The translations under genes were made by a program, and so were the position numbers. Of a DNA stretch of 63,760 nucleotides, positions 2,981-63,760 are shown piece by piece. Location of the stretch: positions 1-63,760 of the forward strand of contig JBMCWH010000003.1 in assembly GCA_048621635.1 (NCBI GenBank), in the 5' to 3' direction. Within the stretch, counting starts at the first letter, position 1. Each line of letters opens with the position of its first letter. The notes under the pieces were generated by a model that saw only the letters and a program-made list of their open reading frames with translations, had not been told where the DNA came from and ran no database searches. This DNA comes from Patescibacteria group bacterium. Lineage in GTDB: Bacteria; Patescibacteriota; WWE3; JAUXAW01; JAYEID01.

Positions 2981-3055
2981 TCCGGGGTGGCGCAGCGGTA
3001 GCGCGCGGGCCTGTTAAGCCCTAGGTCGTGGGTTCGAATCCCACCCCCGGAGCCA
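2981..3055 (+). tRNA. tRNA-Asn (anticodon GTT), CCA encoded
   Basis: Hand-folded cloverleaf: acceptor TCCGGGG/CCCCGGA, D stem GCGC/GCGC, anticodon loop CTGTTAA, T arm GTGGG-TTCGAAT-CCCAC, discriminator G followed by CCA. Confidence 0.9.
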
Positions 3056-3125
3056 TGAACCCGACGTGGTTCATGCAGTGTACCCCACGTGGTACACTGC
3101 AGTGAACTCAACGTAGTTCACTGCA
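3056..3125 (+). repeat. Three tandem hairpins immediately 3' of tRNA-Asn, with a shared loop motif C-N-ACGT
   Basis: The hairpins are TGAACC-cgacgt-GGTTCA, TGCAGTGTACC-ccacgt-GGTACACTGCA and TGCAGTGAACT-caacgt-AGTTCACTGCA. The stems differ but the loops are conserved. No T-tract follows. Confidence 0.7.
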
Positions 3126-29847: not shown

Positions 29848-31650
29848 ATGGTTGAATCGATAGATAAAAATAAAATACGCAATTTTTGTATTATTGCTCA
29901 TATCAATCACGGAAAGTCAACATTGGCAGATCGATTGTTGGAAGAAACCGGTACAGTTTCTTCTCGAAAAATGAGTAACAGATTGTTGGATAAGATGGAC
30001 TTGGAAAAAGAAAAAGGAATAACTATTAAGTTGAAGCCTGTAAGAATGTCTTTTTCATATTCCAGGAAGGAATATGTTTTGAATCTCGTAGATACCCCGG
30101 GACACGTCGACTTTTCTTATGAAGTGTCGAGATCATTGGCTGCTTGCGAAGGTGCTATTCTGTTGGTGGACGCCGTTTCTGGTATTCAGGCCCAAACTTT
30201 AGCTAATTTGGAGAAGGCTAGAAAGCAAGGGTTGAAAATATTACCTGTGGTTAACAAGATAGATTTGCCCGATGCTCAACCAGAGAAGGTTGCTAGAAAT
30301 TTGGTGAATTCTTTGGGTTTCGATAAGTCTTCTGTATCGTATATTTCGGCTAAAACGGGTAAAAATGTTACTCAATTGTTAAGTCGCATTGTTAAGGAGG
30401 TTTCTCCTCCAAAGCGCAATGGTTCTCACTTGCAGGGGTTAGTTTTTGATAGTTTTTATGATCCTCATCGCGGGGCAATAGCGGTGGTTCGATTAATGAA
30501 TGGCAATTTAGAAAGAGAGGCGGCAGCTTGCTTTTTAGGCACAGATACTACTTTTGTTGCTGAAGAGTTGGGGTATTTTGTTCCTGAGGAGCAGCCTACA
30601 GAGAAATTGTCAGTGGGGGAAGTAGGTTATGTTGTTACTGGAATGAAAGATATAAGTAAGATTAGGGTTGGCGATACATTGGTTTCTGGACAGCGACCAA
30701 AGATGGAAGCTTTACCCGGCTATCGGGAGCCAAAGCCAATGGTTTTCCAAAGTGTTTTTCCCTTGTCAGCTAATGGTTACACGCCGTTGAAGAAAGCTCT
30801 TCAATATTTACATTTGTCTGATTCTTCTTTCACGTTTTCTCCTTCGTCATCGGAGTCTTTAGGTAGGGGATTCCAGCTTGGTTTTTTGGGAGCATTGCAC
30901 GGAGATATAATTTGTGAACGCTTGCGGCGAGAATTTGATTTGGAGATATTAACCACACCTCCGGCTGTTTCCTATAAGATAAAGACAAATGATGGAGAGA
31001 CGCATATTGCTCGCACTCCTTCCGAGCTTCCTGAGCCTGAGCAAATTAAGGATATTCTTGAACCTTGGTTACGCGTGACCATATACACACCGGAGGAATA
31101 TTTGGGAGCAGTATTTTCACTTTGTGAGAATAGGCGTGGTGTTCACCAGCAACAGAAGCATTTTGCGGAAAAAGTGAAATTGGTTTATTTGTTACCTATG
31201 GCTTCCTTTTTGCAAGGATTTTATAACAAATTGAAATCTGCTTCTTCTGGTTATGCATCTTTGGAATATGTTTTAGACGAATGGCGGTCAGCAGATGTAG
31301 TGCGGTTAGATATATTAGTTCATTACGAGATTGTGGAGCCTCTTTCCCAACTAGTTTTACGGAAGAATGCTTATGCTGTTGGAAAGCGAATGGTATCTGA
31401 TTTGAAAGAATTGTTACCTCCAGCACAGTTTCCACTTGCTTTGCAGGCGGCAATTGGTAGTAATGTTATTGCTAGAGAAACTATTGGCGCACAGAGAAAA
31501 AATGTTACGGAAAAATTGTATGGAGGAGATAGGACAAGAAAAGACAAACTTCTTCAACAGCAAAGAGAAGGCAAGAAAGAATTAAGTGCGCGAGGGGATG
31601 TCTCAGTGCCTGCAGATGTCTTGCAAAAGCTGTGGCGGAATAGCGAATAG
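29848..31650 (+). CDS. lepA: Elongation factor 4 (LepA)
   Basis: NFCIIAHINHGKSTL, DTPGHVDF and NKIDL, plus the LepA-specific C-terminal domain (YGGDRTRKDKLL). Confidence 0.95.
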   Translation: MVESIDKNKIRNFCIIAHINHGKSTLADRLLEETGTVSSRKMSNRLLDKMDLEKEKGITIKLKPVRMSFSYSRKEYVLNLVDTPGHVDFSYEVSRSLAACEGAILLVDAVSGIQAQTLANLEKARKQGLKILPVVNKIDLPDAQPEKVARNLVNSLGFDKSSVSYISAKTGKNVTQLLSRIVKEVSPPKRNGSHLQGLVFDSFYDPHRGAIAVVRLMNGNLEREAAACFLGTDTTFVAEELGYFVPEEQPTEKLSVGEVGYVVTGMKDISKIRVGDTLVSGQRPKMEALPGYREPKPMVFQSVFPLSANGYTPLKKALQYLHLSDSSFTFSPSSSESLGRGFQLGFLGALHGDIICERLRREFDLEILTTPPAVSYKIKTNDGETHIARTPSELPEPEQIKDILEPWLRVTIYTPEEYLGAVFSLCENRRGVHQQQKHFAEKVKLVYLLPMASFLQGFYNKLKSASSGYASLEYVLDEWRSADVVRLDILVHYEIVEPLSQLVLRKNAYAVGKRMVSDLKELLPPAQFPLALQAAIGSNVIARETIGAQRKNVTEKLYGGDRTRKDKLLQQQREGKKELSARGDVSVPADVLQKLWRNSE

Positions 31651-32233
31651 GCTACAAATAGAAATTAGTAGTAAGCATTAAGCAGTAAGCAGGAAGTAGT
31701 AAGCAGGAAGTAGTAAGCATTAAGCACCAAGCTCCAAATAACAAGTTCCAAAAAGGATTCGTATTTCGTATCTCGTATTACGTATCAAGAGAAATCAGAG
31801 ACTAGAGACTGGCGACTAGTACCTGGAGACTGGAGATAGGAAACTAGTAACTGGTATAGCGGGAACGGCGAAAGAAAAAGCCTGGCTTTGGGAAATTCGC
31901 CAGCTGAACAACTGTGGGTTTACGGGACTACGAAATGAGGAAAGTCGCCTACAACGGCGACCACGCTGAGCGGGGCGACCCGCCGTCTTAGGAGGGATTC
32001 TGAATCCCCCTTCGGGGGTTCAGAATGACGATACACGTGGTTAAGCGATTGAATAGTTTGTATTGAACATTTTGAACAAGTGAGCGAAGCGAACGGTTCA
32101 ACATTTTCAACAACTTAACCAAGCGTAACGATCCAACACTTTTGACATTTTGTACCGCATGCCGTGTACCGTATTTGGTATAGCAAATTATTACGAAAGG
32201 GAACAGTAAGTTCTATTTGTTCCATTTGTCTTA
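31651..32233. repeat. 580-nt non-coding block of stuttering word repeats and GC-rich hairpins
   Basis: Tandem AGTAAGCAGGAAGT x2 plus variants, CGTAT-type heptamer stutter, GAGACT stutter, GGTATAGC words, the hairpin ATTCTGAATCCCCC-ttcg-GGGGTTCAGAAT, and the word CAACACTTTTGACATTT. Confidence 0.8.
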
Positions 32234-32266
32234 TTGCCGGATACTGATGGCGGTTATGTTATAATA

Positions 32267-32710: not shown

Positions 32711-33040
32711 ATGGACGCAGTTTCTTTTGCGGAATTCAAAAAGTTAGATTTGCGGATAGGCGAGGTGGTGGAGGTGTTAGAAGTAGAGAGTTTGGACAAG
32801 GTACTGAAGCTTCGGGTTGATTTAGGTGAGTTAGGAATTAAGACTATTTTGGCCGGTGTTAAGGAGACTCATAGTAAGGAAGATCTAGTTAGAAAGCAGA
32901 TTGTGGTGGTTGCCAATCTTGCTCCTAAGAAGATTGGAGGGGAGGTTTCGGAAGGTATGCTTTTAGCTGTGGATACTGATAAAGAACCTGTCTTGCTAAC
33001 TCCAAATAGAAAAGTGGCAGTAGGCGCGAAAGTTGTTTAA
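32711..33040 (+). CDS. tRNA-binding domain protein (CsaA/Trbp111/EMAP-like)
   Basis: Contains FAEFKKLDLRIGEV, LKLRVDLGE and VVVANLAPKKIGGEVSEGMLLA. Confidence 0.8.
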   Translation: MDAVSFAEFKKLDLRIGEVVEVLEVESLDKVLKLRVDLGELGIKTILAGVKETHSKEDLVRKQIVVVANLAPKKIGGEVSEGMLLAVDTDKEPVLLTPNRKVAVGAKVV

Positions 33041-33049
33041 TCTGTGTAA

Positions 33050-33126
33050 GGGCCTGTAGCTCAGTGGTTTAGAGCGCCATCCTTATAAGATGGATGTCCC
33101 TGGTTCGAATCCAGGCAGGCCCACCA
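33050..33126 (+). tRNA. tRNA-Ile with anticodon TAT (UAU), CCA encoded
   Basis: Perfect 77-nt cloverleaf: GGGCCTG/CAGGCCC acceptor, GCTC/GAGC D stem, CCATC-CTTATAA-GATGG anticodon arm, CCTGG-TTCGAAT-CCAGG T arm. Confidence 0.85.
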
Positions 33127-33375
33127 TCCTCCTTCGCCGCGCCTGCCTGCCGGCAAGGCAGGGCTTCGGAGGACCTTCGGTCCGAACGAAACCCGTGCAG
33201 GGGAGATGCCCCTCGTAGTTCCGATTAGTCGGAACGAAGTGAGGCAAAGTACACCTTACGGCCCTTTGCTAAAGCTATGGACGACAGGCCAGGTGGCCTA
33301 CGGGCATCCGGACGCGAGTTTAGACGAAGGAGTGTCGTTTCCGTAGCCTTGTGCGAAAGGGCACATCAATGTAGG
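33127..33375 (+). repeat. GC-rich multi-hairpin block 3' of tRNA-Ile(UAU), related to the ITS and rRNA-insertion modules
   Basis: Stems closed by tetraloop-like sequences: GGACC-ttcg-GTCC, CCTGCC..GGCAGG, GTTCCG-attagt-CGGAAC. The 23-mer GCGAGTTTAGACGAAGGAGTGTC (33314-33336) matches 62806-62828 at 22/23 positions. It ends with CCTTGTGC-gaaa-GGGCACATCAA, like the start of the rRNA insertion. Confidence 0.7.
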
Positions 33376-33513
33376 TTTATGCGGAAAGAAATAAGCAAAG
33401 AGGTCTGTATGTGTTGACTTTCCTTTGATACTCAGCAGTTTGTATTTTGGAAGACGAAGATATTTAACAATTGAGGAAAGTTGCTTCCAAATTATTAACT
33501 ACTCACACCCTAA

Positions 33514-35949
33514 CTACTTTCGTTTACGTCGGGCTCTAAAAGCCCATTTAATTAATTCAATACCTACAATATCAATAGTTCCTAAAAGCATAATTAAGCC
33601 TATATCCATTGTTCGAAGAGGATTCAGTCTTAAGAAATTACGCAAGGGATGTATTAAGAAAGAGGATGTTAATAGAATAAGACCAGAGCCAATTGTTGCC
33701 AATAACATCCGATTTTTAATCGGCGGTGAATGGATAATACTCTTACTGAGGCTACGACAAGAGAAAACGTAAAGAAGCGAGTCCAAACCAAGAGTTCCGA
33801 ATGTAATTGTTCTAATGTGGTCTATTGATGTTCCTCTGTTAAACAACCATAAAGTTACTGTTAGCAAAATAGCATCTGTCATTAATCCTACAGCAAAGAT
33901 TATTGATTTTACCTCCTTATCCAACAGTGGTACGTCTGTAGGTATAGGTGCTTGCTGTAACAATCCTGGTTCTTTTCCTTCGAATGCTAACGCAACGCCT
34001 GGTAGACCGTCTTCTACTAAGTTTATCCATAAGATTTGGAACGGCAATATTGGTAGAGGAATTCCGGTTAATAGTGAACCTCCTATTAATACAACAGTAG
34101 TGAAGCTGTCAGAGAGAAGATATGCTAGTATTTTGCGTATATTTTTGTAAATACCGCGTCCCTCTTCAATTGCGTGTACTATAGAGCTGAAACTTGATTT
34201 TACTAAAGCCATGTCTGCAGTTTCTTTAGCTACCTCTGATCCTGTGCCCATAACTATCCCTATTTCCGCACGTTTTAAAGCTAGTGAATCATTTACCCCA
34301 TCACCGGTCATAGCTACAACCTCTTTTCTTTTTTGCAGTGCTTCGACAATGCGCAGCTTCTGGTGGGGGGCTGTTCTGCAGAAGAGCTTGATGTTCGGTA
34401 TTTTGTTATTCAGTTGCTTGTCGTTAAGTTGGTGAAGCTCCGTACCAGTGATAATTTCTTTTTCTTTCAGTTGAATATCCAGCTGTTTTAGAACAGCAAC
34501 TGCCGTTTCCTTTATGTCTCCTGTTACTACCTTAGTTTCCACTCCTGCTGTTTGACAGTCCTTCAAAGCTTTTTTGACTTCTTCTCGGACCGGATCTTCT
34601 GCGTAAAGTACTCCCAGCCACTTTAATGATTTTTCCTTATTTAAATTAGTTTCTTTTTCAATTCCGGCCTGTTTTCTGTAAGCATAACCGACCGCTCTCA
34701 ATCCCGTTCCTGCTTTTTCCTTGATTTTCTGTAGCTGTTTTGATTTTTCTTCTTCACTTATTCCGCATTTTTCCAAAACGACTTCTGGAGCACCTGCTAT
34801 GAATAGGTGTTTTTTTGTAAGGGCGGACGCTAGCTTGGTCTCTGATTCAAAAGGGTCATCATCAATAATTGTACTTTCTTTAACAATTTGTTCTGGGTCC
34901 TTTGCTCCGTTGTTTTTTAGCCATTCCCAAATTGCTTTTTCTAAAGGATCTGTTCTTGCGTTGCACAAGGCAGCTGCGTAACTGATTAAATTTAAGTTAG
35001 TTTCTTCATGTTTTGTTACTTGCATGTCTCCCAGTGTTAGGGTTCCTGTTTTGTCAACACAAATTACTGTAGTGGATCCTAAAGTCTCAGTTACTGTAAG
35101 TTTTTTAATTAATGCCCCGCGATTTAGAATGCGTTTCATTCCTAAGGCAAGCACAACAGTTAGAGATACGGCTAAGCCTTCGGGAACCGCAGCTACCGCT
35201 ATAGCTACGCTGGTAATAAACATTTGGTAAGGATCTCTCCCTGTTAAAATACCTTCAATAAAGATTAATGTGGCGAGGATACCTACTACCATGGCAATGG
35301 TTTTGCTTAACCTGTTGAGCTTTTTCTGAAGAGGAGTTTTTTCTGCTTCAGTGAGACTTAGTTTATGAGCAATTTGGCCGATTTTAGTATCTTTACCAGT
35401 CTTTTTTACAATCATCTGCCCTTTGCCTGCTCCAATTAAGGTGCCCTTATAAGCGTTATCATCTTTTTCTTTCTCAACTAGTGTTGATTCACCCGTTAAA
35501 GTAGCCTCATTTATTGCTAGGTTAGCAGGTTTTACTATTGTGCCGTCTGCAGGAACCTTACCACCCGCTTTTAAAAAAACGAGGTCACCAACTACAACAT
35601 CCTGAGTCGGAATTTCTTTTCTTTTTCCGTTCCGCAAAACTTCTGCTTTGAGGGTTTGTGCCTGGGCTAACTTTTCTAATACTTTTAGAGATTTTCTTTC
35701 TTGGATATAGCCTAAAATAATGTTTAAAAGGGCGGCAGCAGCTATAGTTATTGCATCTAGCTGTTCGTTTAGGAGGAAAGCGGTGGTTGCTGCGGTTATT
35801 AAAATATACATTAACGGATTTTTGAACTGTTCTAGAAAAAGCTCGAGTTGTGATGTTGGTTTTTTTCGAGGAATTAGGTTAGGGCCGTTTTTTTCTCTGC
35901 GCCTTTTTGCTTCTTCTTTAGTTAGACCGTTGTAGTTTTCTGGAAGCAT
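33514..35949 (-). CDS. Cation-translocating P-type ATPase (type II, Ca2+/Mg2+-like)
   Basis: DKTGTLT phosphorylation site, TGES, TGDIKETA, MTGDGVNDSLALK and about 10 TM helices. The ATG at 35949 gives the N-terminus MLPENYNGLTKEEAKRR. Confidence 0.9.
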   Translation of the reverse strand: MLPENYNGLTKEEAKRRREKNGPNLIPRKKPTSQLELFLEQFKNPLMYILITAATTAFLLNEQLDAITIAAAALLNIILGYIQERKSLKVLEKLAQAQTLKAEVLRNGKRKEIPTQDVVVGDLVFLKAGGKVPADGTIVKPANLAINEATLTGESTLVEKEKDDNAYKGTLIGAGKGQMIVKKTGKDTKIGQIAHKLSLTEAEKTPLQKKLNRLSKTIAMVVGILATLIFIEGILTGRDPYQMFITSVAIAVAAVPEGLAVSLTVVLALGMKRILNRGALIKKLTVTETLGSTTVICVDKTGTLTLGDMQVTKHEETNLNLISYAAALCNARTDPLEKAIWEWLKNNGAKDPEQIVKESTIIDDDPFESETKLASALTKKHLFIAGAPEVVLEKCGISEEEKSKQLQKIKEKAGTGLRAVGYAYRKQAGIEKETNLNKEKSLKWLGVLYAEDPVREEVKKALKDCQTAGVETKVVTGDIKETAVAVLKQLDIQLKEKEIITGTELHQLNDKQLNNKIPNIKLFCRTAPHQKLRIVEALQKRKEVVAMTGDGVNDSLALKRAEIGIVMGTGSEVAKETADMALVKSSFSSIVHAIEEGRGIYKNIRKILAYLLSDSFTTVVLIGGSLLTGIPLPILPFQILWINLVEDGLPGVALAFEGKEPGLLQQAPIPTDVPLLDKEVKSIIFAVGLMTDAILLTVTLWLFNRGTSIDHIRTITFGTLGLDSLLYVFSCRSLSKSIIHSPPIKNRMLLATIGSGLILLTSSFLIHPLRNFLRLNPLRTMDIGLIMLLGTIDIVGIELIKWAFRARRKRK

Positions 35950-36182: not shown

Positions 36183-37067
36183 TTAGAGTTCTTCCAGTTC
36201 TTTAGTTTCTTTTTCTGGTCTATCTACGTATTGAAGATATTTTTCTGTGGAGGTTAGTCTTTTGTGCCCGATTAGGTTGGAAATGTATGTAACATCTGCT
36301 CCGCGGCTAAGATGGTGGGCGACAAAAGTATGTCTTAGGGAACTGACTGTTGCATCTTCAATTCCTGCTTTTTCAAAGTATCGATTGAGGGAAGCACGGA
36401 TATTACGGATTAGAAACGGGTTTCCTGTTTTGGTAATAAATAAGATATCGGAGTCACTTTCTGGGCGTACTTCTAGGTAATCCTTTATCGCTTCTTGTGC
36501 CGCTTTGTTTAGCGGTACAGCTCGTCCTGGGCGGCGGTGGGAGGGACGGACGTATAGCTCACCTGGGCCATTGTCGGAAAAGGTAATGTCCTCGATACGT
36601 ACTTCGCGGAGTTCCCCAATGCGGATTCCAGTTTGCAAAAGAAGTTCTACAACTGCGTACATTCTTTTATCATCGCGAACTACGTCGCGCAGGGCTCGAT
36701 ATTCCATTTCTAATAGTATTCGGGGGGGTTTAATTTCAAATTGAGGATGTTTTAAGCGTGATGCGGGGTTTTCGCTTATTTCTCCTTCTTCTTTGAGATG
36801 GCGAAAGAATGTGCGGATAGAATTTATTTTTCTGGAAATAGATTTCTTTGTGTAGCCAGAATCTTCTAAGTCATCGAGGAAAGAGGCAAGGTCTCCATAT
36901 TTTATCTCGTCTGCCTCTGGGTCATCTAAAAATTCTATAAGTTGTCTTATATCCGTTCCATAGGCTAGTACTGTTGATTCTGCCCTGTTTTTTTCTTCCA
37001 GATCTTCTATGAAACCGTCATAATTTTCGCGTAATGTAGCCATTATAGCCTTAAAAATATCAGACAT
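36183..37067 (-). CDS. Tyrosine recombinase (XerC/XerD-like)
   Basis: N-terminal SAM-like domain, then a catalytic region with R..., LRHTFVAHHL, GHKRLTSTEKY. Confidence 0.8.
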   Translation of the reverse strand: MSDIFKAIMATLRENYDGFIEDLEEKNRAESTVLAYGTDIRQLIEFLDDPEADEIKYGDLASFLDDLEDSGYTKKSISRKINSIRTFFRHLKEEGEISENPASRLKHPQFEIKPPRILLEMEYRALRDVVRDDKRMYAVVELLLQTGIRIGELREVRIEDITFSDNGPGELYVRPSHRRPGRAVPLNKAAQEAIKDYLEVRPESDSDILFITKTGNPFLIRNIRASLNRYFEKAGIEDATVSSLRHTFVAHHLSRGADVTYISNLIGHKRLTSTEKYLQYVDRPEKETKELEEL

Positions 37068-37176
37068 GTTTATATCTGTCAATAGTTTATTCTATGAGGC
37101 CCCTGTTATAGACATTAGCGAGAGTATTTTCTGTCCTTTTGTTGCAGTATTTCTTTTCCGTTGGTACTCTTCAAGT

Positions 37177-37578
37177 ATGGCGTATAAATTTCTAAATATA
37201 TTTTCCGGAGACGTGAGTGGAAATAAGTTTTTTAATATAGCTGGAAAATTATTGCTATTACTTTGTATTGTTCTGCTTTTAATGTCTTTATGGAGGGCTT
37301 TGTGGGGAAGTTTGTCGTCATTAGGGCGAGTGCGCCAGTTGAGAAAAGAGGTGGGTCTATTGCAAGAGCGGAATGAAGAGTTAAAGAGCGAGTTAGAAGA
37401 GAAGAAAACATTGCACTTTGTTGAGGAAGTTGCGAGAAGAGATTTAGGTATGGTGAAGGAATCCGAACAAGTGGTAGTTGTTCCTGGAGAAGACTCTCGG
37501 ATGAAGCATGATCCAGTTGGTGATAGTGCTCTTTCTCTGAAAACGTGGAAAGAATGGCTTTTCGTTTTTGGATGGTGA
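37177..37578 (+). CDS. ftsB: Septum formation initiator (FtsB/DivIC family)
   Basis: The ATG at 37177 is followed by a TM helix, a coiled coil (LRKEVGLLQERNEELKSELEE) and EEVARRDLGMVKE. Confidence 0.7.
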   Translation: MAYKFLNIFSGDVSGNKFFNIAGKLLLLLCIVLLLMSLWRALWGSLSSLGRVRQLRKEVGLLQERNEELKSELEEKKTLHFVEEVARRDLGMVKESEQVVVVPGEDSRMKHDPVGDSALSLKTWKEWLFVFGW

Positions 37579-37885
37579 TATAGCGAATAGTTATTCCGCT
37601 CACCGCGTGCCGCTTTCCGTCCTCAGCTACAAATTTGTAGCCGATTCTCAAGCGAGCAACTGACAACTATCTCTCTTTGCACCCTGCACCCCGTACCCTG
37701 TTATCACGGATTAAACGAGTTAAACCTTAAAGGGTTCTCCGGTTATAAGATACAAAATACGATATACGAAATACGGTATATACTGTATTGCCCATTAGCA
37801 TTTGATATTAGGCTTCCACTAAAGCTACTTCCTACTAGTTATAGCTTGAGTGCTTTGTCTATATTTGCTATAATAGTAAGCACGA

Positions 37886-37963
37886 CGCGGGGTGGTGTAG
37901 CGGACTGCATGCGAGGCCCATAACCTCGAGGTAGGAGGGTTCGACTCCCTCCCCCCGCAACCA
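37886..37963 (+). tRNA. Initiator tRNA-fMet (CAT), CCA encoded
   Basis: Starts CGCGGGG and ends CCCCGCAACCA, giving the bacterial initiator C1xA72 mismatch. The anticodon loop is CCCATAA. Confidence 0.8.
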
Positions 37964-38104
37964 TCACGACATCCAAAGTTGCCGAAGGCAACTTCCGCCG
38001 GGATGCCCCGTTGGAAACGAGCGTTAGCGAGTTTTGGATAACGGGGCAGCGATTTTACGGCAGGGTAGCTCAGGTGGCAGATAATAATTTGACAGACTTT
38101 TAAG

Positions 38105-38803
38105 ATGGCTAAGTCAAAAGAACGTTTAAAAGCTAGAAAATTAAGGAGAGCAGGAAGTAGTATTAACGAGATAGCTGAAAAGGTTAATGCGTCAAAAAGC
38201 AGTATAAGTAGGTGGTGTAGAGATGTTGAGTTAATCGAAGAGCAAAGAAGAGACTTGCTTAAGAGAGCAGAAGACGGGGCGGCCAAAGGCCGATTGAAAT
38301 GGGCAAAAATACAGAAGCAACGGCGGTTGACAGAGATTAGAACTTTATGTAAAGAGGGAATTGAAGAAGTGGGAGATTTGAACAGAAGAGATTTTTTTCT
38401 GACCGGGGTAGGTCTCTATTGGACGGAAGGATTTAAATCCAATGACAGATGCGGTTTTATAAACTCCGATCCGGAAATGGTCTGTTTCTTAATCCTTTGG
38501 ATGAAGACCTTTTTTGATCTGGAAGACGAAGATTTTTATGTTAACGTAGATATAAATATTGCTCATAAGGAGAGAATTGAAGAAGTAGAGAAGTTCTGGT
38601 CTGATGTTACAGGGATTCCGGTTGAACGCTTTCGAAACCCCAGTTATAAGCGTTATAAATTAAAGAAGAAATTCGAAAATTTTGAAAATCACTACGGTTC
38701 CTTGCGAGTATATGCAAAGAAAGGAACCAAGAAATTCAGGAAAATAAGAGGCTGGATTGAGGGTTTGAAAGGTAATTTTGATAAAAAGGCTATTGACTAT
38801 TAG
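38105..38803 (+). CDS. Putative LAGLIDADG-type homing endonuclease with an N-terminal HTH
   Basis: 232 aa. HTH (SINEIAEKVNASKSSISRWC) and one LAGLIDADG-like motif (FFLTGVGLYWTEGFK). The stop codon directly abuts tRNA-Met. Confidence 0.5.
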   Translation: MAKSKERLKARKLRRAGSSINEIAEKVNASKSSISRWCRDVELIEEQRRDLLKRAEDGAAKGRLKWAKIQKQRRLTEIRTLCKEGIEEVGDLNRRDFFLTGVGLYWTEGFKSNDRCGFINSDPEMVCFLILWMKTFFDLEDEDFYVNVDINIAHKERIEEVEKFWSDVTGIPVERFRNPSYKRYKLKKKFENFENHYGSLRVYAKKGTKKFRKIRGWIEGLKGNFDKKAIDY

Positions 38804-38877
38804 GGCAGGGTAGCTTAACGGTAGAGCAGAGCTCTCATAAGGCTCCGGAGAGGGTTCGATTCCCTCCCCTGCCACCA
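38804..38877 (+). tRNA. tRNA-Met (CAT; elongator type, or Ile2 if lysidinylated), CCA encoded
   Basis: GGCAGGG/CCCTGCC acceptor, GAGCT-CTCATAA-GGCTC anticodon arm, GAGGG-TTCGATT-CCCTC T arm. Confidence 0.85.
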
Positions 38878-39030
38878 TTTTTTTTACCAACTTTGAGTTT
38901 TAGGACAAGAATTTGTTGTCCGTAGCTTTGTGTTGGGGAACAGTCAACGCGTATCTCTCCAAAACTACGAAAATATCCCCCAGTCATAAAATTAGTGACC
39001 CCTGACAGACTCTTTAGTTATACATGGTGT

Positions 39031-60304: not shown

Positions 60305-61944
<1,640 letters not shown>

Positions 61945-62246
61945 AAAGGAGTACCTTATAATCTCTTATCCAATCTGAGTTAATTCATATAATCGATCAT
62001 ATGTGAGTTACTGGTGAAGAGAATGGTTTCAATTTTTCACAATTGAAACTGGATCGAGTTTGCTAGATTAGCTTAAATCTAGTACTGACCTGTGATTTTT
62101 CGCAGGTGGCGTTCCTTCTACTTTTTAGCTGTTAAGGCAGAGATTTTTGTCTTTAGAAGATTGAGTTTGTTGAGACCTCCTTCGCTGAAGCTACGGAGGA
62201 CCAATTCAACTAACCAGATTCTAGTAAAAATTTGGAGTTTTATTAG

Positions 62247-62323
62247 GCGCGTGTAGCTCAGCGGCTTAGAGCACTTCTCTGATAAGGAAGGGGTCCGTGG
62301 TTCGAGTCCACGCACGCGCACCA
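62247..62323 (+). tRNA. tRNA-Ile (GAT) in the 16S-23S spacer, CCA encoded
   Basis: GCGCGTG/CACGCGC acceptor, anticodon loop CTGATAA, CGTGG-TTCGAGT-CCACG T arm. Confidence 0.9.
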
Positions 62324-62440
62324 CTTTTCGCTCTTGACGAGCTACGGATGGCCGTCGGCCACCCCGAAGCGAGTCTAAGCGAAGGAGTGTCACTCATAGC
62401 CCTGCCTCGCCGGCAGGTAGGCAGGCTTGGCGAAGGGTGG
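62324..62440 (+). repeat. GC-rich hairpin element following tRNA-Ile (ITS copy A)
   Basis: About 85% identical by eye to 62759-62872. The closing stem pairs CCACTTTTCGC (which includes the tRNA CCA) with GCGAAGGGTGG. Confidence 0.75.
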
Positions 62441-62681
62441 CAAAGCATAGTTTCTCGGAAAATTGCTAATGAAATCTGGATTGTTACAAAATTTAATATT
62501 TACCTTAGCGTTCAGATTCTCCCTAGATTTCCTTTTTTAAGTAATTTTCCGGAACTGAATTCTGATTACCGTTGGGTTGAAGGGTCTCGTTGAGCCTCTT
62601 GGCTCCGGCACGCTTAGCGTGCCTTCGCTCGAGACTAATTCCGACCATCCAAATTTGAAGACGAATTTGGGATTTCATTGA

Positions 62682-62758
62682 GGGGCTGTGGCGCAGTTGG
62701 CTAGCGCACCACATTTGCAGTGTGAAGGTCGTGGGTTCGAATCCCACCAGCTCCACCA
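62682..62758 (+). tRNA. tRNA-Ala (TGC) in the 16S-23S spacer, CCA encoded
   Basis: GGGGCTG/CAGCTCC acceptor with the G3:U70 Ala identity pair, and anticodon loop TTTGCAG. Confidence 0.9.
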
Positions 62759-62872
62759 CCCTTCGCTCTTAATGAGCTACGGGTGGCCTTCGGCCATCCC
62801 AAGTAGCGAGTTTAGACGAGGGAGTGTCACCCATAGCCTTGCCTCGTCGGCAGGTAGGCTTGGCGACGGGTG
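62759..62872 (+). repeat. GC-rich hairpin element following tRNA-Ala (ITS copy B)
   Basis: Homologous to copy A. The closing stem pairs CACCCTTCGC with GCGACGGGTG. Confidence 0.75.
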
Positions 62873-63032
62873 ACCGAAAATGTTTGTGCGAAACAAGTTG
62901 AGTTATTTAAGCAGCACATTTTAGCCTGCGATGTATATCGCTGGTTGAATTTTGCTACTTGTGTGGCAATCTACTTCGCACTTTGAAAACTAAATAGCAG
63001 GAACGAATATGCAAAATCCGTATAGAATACTC

Positions 63033-63760
<728 letters not shown>

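Follow-up and report, generated by a model that had tools for sequence, protein, structure and literature searches.

The block behind tRNA-Ile(UAU)

The DNA analysed here, the window, is a stretch of 63,760 nucleotides from a bacterium of the candidate phyla radiation (CPR), sampled from a microbial mat; a gene neighbouring the locus of interest has its nearest GTDB match in a WWE3 metagenome-assembled genome (MAG). The locus is a block of DNA (33127-33375) that begins one base past the encoded CCA of a gene for tRNA-Ile(UAU). The block is not a known RNA gene: it consists of two tandem palindromic elements, modules A and B, built from a small hairpin of the repetitive extragenic palindrome (REP) type. 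The first-pass annotation had pointed to a GC-rich, hairpin-dense block at this position, and the composition bears this out, with a GC of 0.59-0.62 across the block against 0.409 for the window; all six stems that it listed are in the sequence. What it did not foresee is that there are two elements in tandem, and that the REP-like hairpin is widespread across phyla. The features of the block and its relatives in the internal transcribed spacer (ITS) of the rRNA operon are listed below, where R1 denotes the covariance model of the hairpin and R2 that of the B-type element.

33050-33126, + strand: tRNA-Ile(UAU) with encoded CCA (ARAGORN; Rfam tRNA, 73.9 bits)
33127-33250, + strand: module A, an inverted doublet that separates the CCA from module B (minimum free energy (MFE) fold, z = -3.35)
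33127-33173, + strand: left arm of module A, TCCTCC-TTC-GCC[CCTGCC hairpin]GGC-TTC-GGAGGA
33210-33244, + strand: right arm of module A, CCTC-GTAG-[TTCCG attagt CGGAA]-CGAA-GTGAGG (sequence reading and fold)
33251-33368, + strand: module B, homologous over its full length to the tRNA-trailer element (alignments, covariance model R2, BLAST)
33314-33336, + strand: conserved word GCGAGTTTAGACGAAGGAGTGTC, 3' strand of the long hairpin in the family consensus
33337-33364, + strand: right arm of module B, hairpin CCGUAGCYUURUGCGAAGG, slightly degenerate and with one extra A
62165-62210, - strand: single hairpin GGUCCUCC-GUA-GC-UUCA-GC-GAA-GGAGGUC, 5' of tRNA-Ile(GAU) (R1 18.8 bits, E 0.004)
62321-62445, + strand: B-type element starting at the CCA of the ITS tRNA-Ile(GAU) (R2 87.4 bits)
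62756-62878, + strand: B-type element starting at the CCA of the ITS tRNA-Ala(UGC) (R2 95.9 bits; z = -4.9)

In module B the two ends are arms of opposite orientation: R1 finds left arms on the minus strand and right arms on the plus strand, so that the element is made up of a left arm, a spacer hairpin and a right arm. The top match of R1 in the window (62746-62796, minus strand, 23.3 bits) is the left arm of the second ITS element, including the CCA of tRNA-Ala, and the second match (33343-33357, plus strand, local, 19.2 bits, E 0.003) is the 3' end of the block. Judged from its sequence, module A has the same inverted-doublet plan. It is closed by the stem CCTCCTTCG/CGAAGTGAGG, its 3' end is GGCAAAG, as in the first ITS element, and its right arm reads as a textbook REP-type layout of GTAG, stem-loop and GAA. 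The GTAG and GAA are found at 33214-33217 and 33236-33238 in module A and at 33343-33346 and 33355-33357 in module B, both times enclosed by an outer stem, and they are part of the widespread core as well; the ITS copies carry ATAG in the GTAG position. Inverted ends of the form CCTTCGC...GCGAAGG are present as well.

The proposed link between the block and the ITS elements turned out to be stronger than the shared 23-mer on which it was based, since 33251-33368 is a full-length copy of the ITS trailer elements, which are about 115 nt long. Three BLAST matches of the block within the window are significant. Positions 33292-33351 match the element behind the ITS tRNA-Ala (79%, E 4.5e-8) and the one behind the ITS tRNA-Ile(GAU) (E 1.7e-5), and positions 33131-33165, in the left arm of module A, match the reverse complement of 62398-62436, the 3' arm of the first ITS element (85%, E 3e-4). 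On module B, a copy that belonged to the training set of R2, this model scores 46.8 bits (E 5e-8). Two exact copies of the 23-nt word GCGAGTTTAGACGARGGAGTGTC are found, at 33314 and 62806, and a third copy, at 62369, has three mismatches, where 0 occurrences are expected; an exact scan for it gave 0 matches in the GTDB genomes and one chance match, within a coding gene, in the JGI metagenomes. In the family consensus the conserved word GCGAGTTTAGACGAAGGAGTGTC lies in a strand whose pairing partners are the left arm and the terminal CA of the tRNA. Compared with the ITS elements, module B has a degenerate left arm and a short right arm, lacks the CCTGCC hairpin and has a 12-nt insertion in its apical hairpin.

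In an Rfam scan of 32950-33550 at E<=10 the tRNA alone scores, and at the gathering threshold the block gives nothing either. The Rfam 15 families considered include the signal recognition particle (SRP) RNA, 6S RNA, RNase P RNA, tmRNA, riboswitches, ribozymes and group I/II introns, so the check for a known noncoding RNA (ncRNA) that had been proposed left no family that explains the block. Scans of 31640-32240 and 37570-39000 gave no relevant family, and a search of a protein database with the translated block, for open reading frames (ORFs) miscalled on other copies, gave no candidates.

By BLAST and the two covariance models, the relatives of the block in the window adjoin tRNA and rRNA genes only. 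To this extent the idea of a modular repeat family beside stable-RNA genes holds, but elsewhere the hairpin is not so limited. Within the block the assembly graph of the source sample (Logan contigs) is broken, the depth reaches up to about 10 times that of the flanks (about 8-10 times for the left arm of module A in run X1), and there are at least three variant copies of A or A-B. Within the 64-kb window there are three B-type elements, one A and one or two single hairpins, and the raised depth and the variant contigs suggest that the genome holds further copies.

Relatives behind other tRNA genes and across phyla

Loci and MAGs that were compared with the window are given L-numbers. A B-type element lies behind at least 10 different tRNAs in related CPR MAGs and in one alphaproteobacterial MAG. 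The model R2 was built from nine B copies, with compensatory changes in 8 of 30 consensus pairs. Its copies are found at the CCA of tRNAs for Lys, Leu, Ile-UAU, fMet, Gly, Phe and Thr in L013, L138, L140, L154, L160 and L167, and at the CCA of a tRNA-Leu in the alphaproteobacterial L159. This last copy lies outside the training set, as do two in L140 (4411-4519 and 4763-4832, at tRNA-Gly and tRNA-Thr) and one in L160 (3562-3647, at tRNA-Phe). All B-type copies start at the CCA of a tRNA, with one exception: the B of the block, which is separated from it by module A. On this sequence comparison the CPR lineage has B as its standard trailer element.

The closest counterpart, L013, was found by a scan with the 3' half of the tRNA. 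Its genes follow the same order, its tRNA-Ile(UAU) is near-identical and has B directly behind it and no A, and the 3' end of its B, CCGTAGCCTTGTGCGAA, is identical to that of the block. In L154 tRNA-Ile(UAU) is likewise followed by B without A. Since all other copies of B start at the CCA, module A most likely entered at the junction of CCA and B, and the sequences suggest that A arrived there later than B. In the more distant relatives L001, L005, L008 and L009 neither A nor B is present at the locus; they keep the synteny of the tRNA-binding gene and tRNA-Ile(UAU), with 56-63% identity in the neighbouring protein. Further, the orthologous spacer between tRNA-fMet and tRNA-Met contains B in L167 and unrelated hairpins in the window and in L013. 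The contents of this spacer differ among relatives, and therefore trailers turn over quickly.

At the tRNA-Ile(UAU) locus of three of the distant relatives there are extra 5' and 3' tRNA fragments around the intact tRNA (L005, 3309-3520; L008, 500-712; L009, 3470-3730). The junctions common to L005 and L008 lie in the anticodon loop (CTT/TAGAT ... GGTT/CTT) and suggest an insertion into an older copy of tRNA-Ile.

The hairpin module itself is about 31 nt long and consists of a 6-bp stem (range 5-7), a 3x3 internal loop GUA/GAA, a GC/GC clamp and a YUURU loop; the internal loop occurs as GUA/GAA, GAA/GUA and GAA/GAA. A scan of GTDB with CCGTAGCYTTRTGCGAA gave at least 119 loci with the core CCGUAGCYUURUGCGAAGG, and among the listed matches are Verrucomicrobia, Lentisphaerae, Planctomycetes, many Patescibacteria, Bacteroidota, Desulfobacterota and Proteobacteria. 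For a collection of this size a few hundred chance matches were estimated to be possible. We nevertheless regard most of the core matches as real because the final GG is continued in 113 of 126 of them, their flanks are complementary and covariation is seen in their stems, at four pairs among 81 independent copies, and also at the Y-R pair of the loop (UA 43, CG 34).

In the hairpin G-U pairs are more frequent than A-C pairs, 36 against 11 (p = 3e-4), which indicates that one strand is under selection. A flipped internal loop (GAA...GUA) is found in L049, in the left arm of L013 and in one variant from the source sample; the loop that is GUA/GAA in the second ITS element is GAA/GUA in L013, and the purine loop lies on opposite strands in the left and right arms. 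Both the strands of the arms and the flipping of the loop are as expected of inverted DNA repeats. The flipping also fits a symmetric loop with tandem G-A pairs.

Copies of the hairpin occupy varied positions, and only 9 of 126 lie within 400 nt of a tRNA. One is found 15 nt 5' of the 16S gene in L014, and a Lentisphaeria MAG, JAFTIE01, has at least seven hairpin loci. The hairpin CCGUAGCCUUGUGCGAAGG occurs in sense orientation within RNase P RNA genes (L029, 2615-2631; L081, 4807-4823; L097, 4036-4052) of Geomesophilobacter, Geomonas and one further genome. Direct repeats of at least 7 nt flank 15 of 83 copies, where 3.8 are expected, for instance TTCGACGA in L014 and TTTTCTCTGC in L120. The canonical copies at other loci gave no Rfam match, and literature searches for the motif sequence and for repeats 3' of tRNA genes gave nothing relevant. 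A phage origin was rejected, as IMG/VR contains only three core matches.

One form of the hairpin is joined to tRNA 3' ends. A GTDB scan with the left-arm pattern CGCTCTYNNNGAGCTWYGGRTGG gave 41 loci, of which about 17 were estimated to be chance matches. In 13 of the 41 the match lies exactly 5 nt past the CCA of a tRNA on the same strand, where neither the tRNA nor the 5 nt past its CCA had been part of the pattern. The tRNAs are those for Asp, Ser-UGA (3), Lys, Leu (4), Ile-UAU (2), Ala-GGC and fMet, and the genomes belong to TM6, Gammaproteobacteria, Opitutaceae, Binatia, Alphaproteobacteria and CPR. The 5 nt past the CCA are always YCCTW, and their Y covaries with the R of GGRTGG (T-A 6, C-G 8); C75 and A76 of the tRNA are therefore part of the stem, and the terminal CA is paired in the local as well as in the long-range fold.

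In addition, a Parcubacteria MAG (L171, 863-2952) has three repeat copies in which the left-arm hairpin lies behind ...GTTCACCA, as if joined to what may be a degenerate tRNA-like 3' end.

Mobile hairpins or a tRNA trailer signal

On balance, and with modest confidence, we favour reading the block as a cluster of mobile hairpins of REP type, resembling a bacterial interspersed mosaic element (BIME) or a REP doublet (REPIN), that is transcribed as the 3' trailer of the tRNA. Modules A and B are each an inverted pair of one small hairpin module, and the modules would have spread at the DNA level in the manner of REPs or miniature inverted-repeat transposable elements (MITEs). A candidate agent is an enzyme like the REP-associated tyrosine transposase (RAYT), or another one that recognises a hairpin in single-stranded DNA, and the region just 3' of tRNA genes may be either a preferred target or a place of tolerance. 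The block has no sigma-70-like promoter and no terminator within 33127-33375, and the sole terminator-like site of the region is at 33531-33545; a GC-rich hairpin followed by a U-tract, as in an intrinsic terminator, is not found in it. As the block has no promoter or terminator of its own and lies between the tRNA and a convergent gene, it is probably transcribed as a tRNA trailer. In such a transcript the long hairpins would pair with the terminal CA of the tRNA, mask its CCA and need to be removed during 3' maturation.

The closest known systems are the GTAG-type REPs. These are short imperfect palindromes with G-T pairs that occur as inverted dimers and in clusters. They lie for the most part 3' of genes, in intervals where the neighbouring genes are convergent or unidirectional, and are present in Proteobacteria, Cyanobacteria, Chloroflexi and the Planctomycetes-Verrucomicrobia-Chlamydiae (PVC) group; the GTAG-1/2 classes consist of GTAG, extra bases, a stem-loop and a 3-bp tail (PMC3733652). 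The 35-bp REP of P. putida, of the GTAG-1 type, has, when its consensus is reverse-complemented, the sequence ccctGtaGGaGCGGGtttaCCCGCGAAgagg, or ...GTAGGA-GCGGG-TTTA-CCCGC-GAA-G... (PMC11585281). Our hairpin has the same order of GTAG, stem, loop, stem and GAA with short complementary outer flanks. It is likewise a short, GC-rich, imperfect palindrome whose stem pairs covary (81 copies), and the arms of A and B fold in this way. REPs occur as singletons, inverted dimers and clusters, and A and B form tandem doublets between convergent genes; many matches of the hairpin are also in PVC and Proteobacteria.

There are differences as well. The 19-nt core of the hairpin is near-identical in different phyla, unlike REP families, each of which is usually confined to one lineage; the elements abut the tRNA CCA and pair with it, and they occur in CPR. 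Some copies of the hairpin have flanking direct repeats, which are not known to have been reported for REPs. The words 'target site' and 'duplication' are absent from the REP paper (PMC3733652). In general, the fit of our elements to the GTAG-type REPs is, on this comparison, good but not complete. The hairpin presumably also resembles the end hairpin of IS608.

MITEs offer a second comparison. Those of bacteria, such as the Correia elements of Neisseria, the enterobacterial repetitive intergenic consensus (ERIC) and the palindromic elements of Rickettsia, are non-coding, 100-150 nt long, have inverted ends and occur in many copies. They insert in transcribed regions, including RNA genes, and their end hairpin is a plausible substrate of RNase III. 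Unlike them, our elements have no long terminal inverted repeat matching a known insertion sequence (IS) and no fixed target-site duplication at A or B, and their building unit, a 35-nt hairpin, is found on its own as well.

Several observations weigh against mobile REP-type hairpins. No RAYT, other Y1 transposase or other candidate enzyme was found in the window or at about 120 loci, in a weak tblastn search with two Y1 transposase queries. No target-site duplication surrounds A or B in the window. The GTAG of REPs is described as an unpaired end of the stem-loop, whereas here it lies opposite the GAA in an internal loop within a covarying outer stem, and the inner stem of our hairpin can be as short as 2 bp. 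The orientation of the hairpins relative to neighbouring ORFs shows no bias, with crude gene calls. Further, the fixed spacing of +5, the single orientation and the covarying +1 base in six phyla could equally reflect an RNA function, and in the long hairpin the tRNA-sense strand has 14 G-U against 7 A-C pairs, which leans slightly to pairing at the RNA level.

The main rival is accordingly a dedicated RNA element of the tRNA 3' trailer, whose hairpins are selected for a function in the precursor RNA. We see this as a possibility that deserves attention, but as clearly the less probable one. In such an element the CCA would be masked, with C75 and A76 paired with a downstream UGG or GUG, and the hairpins might serve as a barrier to exonucleases, a site for RNase III or RNase E, a terminator without a U-tract, or an insulator of convergent transcripts; the repeated look of the block would stem from duplication of tRNA cassettes and not from selfish mobility. 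The left-arm hairpin right behind the CCA of 13 tRNA genes in six groups, the +1 base that covaries with its partner, the pairing of the terminal CA in local and long-range folds, the compensatory changes in 8 of 30 consensus pairs and the lack of a separate terminator behind the tRNA all argue for such an element. It agrees poorly with the variable presence of the element at orthologous tRNAs, where trailers are swapped for unrelated ones, and with the presence of two tandem elements in the block, against a single one in relatives. Moreover, the tRNA-proximal arm has its purine-loop motif on the antisense strand, and the hairpin is found at many sites away from tRNAs (9 of 126 copies are within 400 nt of one), some of them with flanking direct repeats. 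Like the hairpins of tRNA 3' external transcribed spacers and terminators, the block lies directly 3' of a tRNA and is probably co-transcribed with it and removed in maturation. In contrast to them it is modular, repeated and conserved across unrelated tRNAs and phyla, and its element pairs with the CCA end and has no U-tract.

That the block is the remnant of a larger mobile element or intron, such as the att site of an island, a degenerate group I/II intron or an IS end, appears unlikely. Mobile DNA does target tRNA genes in this lineage, as illustrated by the tRNA-Met fragment and ORF at 38061-38803, and there is a tyrosine recombinase gene at 36183-37082. However, no duplicated tRNA 3' fragment is found at the far end of the block, neither Rfam nor Pfam gives an intron or IS signal, and the boundaries of the elements fit small, self-contained units. 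The synteny of the recombinase with DivIC is kept in relatives without the block, which points to a housekeeping gene of Xer type.

A little less probable still is a free-standing structured ncRNA gene of a new family that lies beside the tRNA by happenstance. The plus strand of the block has an MFE of -106.5 kcal/mol and z = -2.96, and 2 of 200 shuffled sequences fold as well; this z of about -3, together with the high GC and the compensatory changes in module B, is what such a gene could show. The minus strand folds at least equally well (z = -3.99), as palindromic DNA would, which hints at such DNA and not at an RNA made from one strand. In addition, the block splits into two units that are found separately elsewhere, it is missing from the syntenic loci of relatives, and it has no promoter-like site and no Rfam match. 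A group I intron, a retron, ribozymes (hatchet, hammerhead, twister or like that of hepatitis delta virus), a K-turn and a fragment of SRP RNA or RNase P RNA were all considered and rejected, as they have no Rfam support or lack their core nucleotides. GCUCUUAAUGAGC resembles the antiterminator boxA; this candidate was dropped because the same hairpin lies behind tRNAs outside rRNA operons. A classical IS200/IS605 or RAYT association was rejected too, since no Y1 transposase was found near the copies (weak tblastn).

Chance GC-rich hairpins or an assembly artefact are very improbable: short-read unitigs do break inside the block, but an identical sequence of tRNA and block is found in an independent NCBI MAG contig of GCA_048622755.1, so it is not a chimera of one assembly, and the block is significantly homologous to the ITS elements as well as to elements of other genomes.

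Taken more broadly, and only tentatively, the copies may form a cross-phylum family of hairpins of about 35 nt with a GUA/GAA loop, single or as doublets of about 100 nt, one form of which is joined to the tRNA CCA and pairs with C75-A76. These might be new mobile mini-elements with tRNA 3' ends as their target, or else an ancient, widely shared masking or processing signal; in CPR the family would have expanded into trailers, the rRNA spacer and possibly the rRNA insertions. If the association with tRNA ends is a matter of targeting, it would be a new insertion specificity for REP- or MITE-like DNA; if it is a matter of function, it would be an unrecognised, widely shared signal of tRNA 3' maturation. 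The stable-RNA genes of CPR are known for unexplained extra sequence, and the tRNA trailers and rRNA-spacer elements of one CPR lineage are now tied to a searchable module, a REP-like hairpin, which tolerates insertion in RNase P RNA and of which one form sits on the tRNA CCA end. The patterns CCA-YCCUWCGCUCU...GAGCUWCGGRUGG and CCGUAGCYUURUGCGAAGG are absent from Rfam 15 and can be used for annotating many genomes.

The rRNA insertions and other features of the window

A further link, between the block and insertions in the rRNA genes, is possible but unproven on the sequences at hand. Two features bear on it.

60374-60551, + strand: insertion in the 16S rRNA gene, with about 90% identity to the one in the 23S gene (63315-63471) but only short words in common with the block; an uncertain member of the family
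38908-38960, + strand: degenerate piece resembling a right arm, CCGTAGCTTTGTG...TCAACGCG, within the tRNA-Met trailer (gene at 38804-38877; alignment; BLAST E 6.6)

The identity of about 90% between the 16S and 23S insertions means that one sequence was placed in both rRNA genes. The end of the block had been described as a mirror of the first module of the rRNA insertion. Short words are indeed common to the two, but the homology is not significant by BLAST or by R1, which gives 7-9 bits at 60374-60551. The 9-mer GCCTTGTGC has four exact copies in the window and is common to the block and the rRNA insertions. GGGCAC-N0-2-ATCAA occurs only at 33359, 60391 and 63332, where 0.07 occurrences are expected for a pattern that was picked after seeing the sequences. 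In the alignment the piece at 38908-38960 bridges the 3' end of the block and the start of the rRNA insertions. A better account of CCTTGTGC-gaaa-GGGCAC is that it forms the right-arm hairpin CCGUAGCCUUGUGCGAA(A)GG, with which every element of the family closes.

A related word had also been placed just after tRNA-fMet and inside the 16S insertion. It is present in both, at 38018 and 60494, with the first coordinate about 15 nt away from where it had been put. This word, CGAGCGTTAGCGAG, is found again at 63414 with two mismatches (0.18 expected), and is thus common to the fMet trailer and both rRNA insertions; it is absent from the block.

The rRNA genes of CPR contain short (<200 bp), ORF-less, uncharacterised insertions, which have been proposed to be intervening sequences (IVS) cut by RNase III; tRNAs are nowhere mentioned in this work (PMC11270868). 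The block resembles these insertions in being structured, GC-rich extra sequence in a stable-RNA transcription unit. It differs in lying outside an rRNA gene, and its similarity to them is limited to short words. Neither does it have the position of an rRNA IVS, being located behind a tRNA, 27 kb from the rRNA operon.

The tRNA-Ile(UAU) gene (33050-33126) lies 9 nt 3' of a gene for a tRNA-binding domain (EMAP/Trbp111-like), and this pairing is kept in WWE3-like relatives. Another tRNA of the window has a trailer of a different family: behind tRNA-Asn, at 3052-3125, three tandem hairpins with the loops CGACGT, CCACGT and CAACGT begin from A76 (z = -5.35). L005 has ACGTGG-rich hairpins behind its tRNA locus.

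Other noncoding features were observed upstream of the block and elsewhere. A GC-rich, structured intergenic stretch at 31850-32030 contains GAGGAAAGTC and recalls the P4 region of RNase P RNA, with no Rfam match at E<=10. Tandem 14-nt units like AGTAGTAAGCAGGA are found at 31653-31745, and here the NCBI MAG contig differs by one gap, a length difference of 14 nt. Intergenic words like ATACGATATACGAAATACGGTATA (36111, 37748, 40109 and 40123) and like GGTATAGCGAATTATTACGA (32176, 32548 and 45230) lie 5' of genes and may be promoter or regulator sites.

The region of the tRNA-Met gene has a rearrangement of its own. Positions 38061-38083 are a copy of the first 23 nt or so of tRNA-Met, followed by an ORF of 232 aa (38105-38803), the sole feature of which is a transposase-like N-terminal helix-turn-helix and which ends where the intact tRNA-Met (38804-38877) begins. 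L013 has both tRNA-Met genes without the 232-aa ORF. Taken as a whole, 38061-38877 has the look of an insertion that hit a tRNA gene in its 5' part and regenerated the tRNA.

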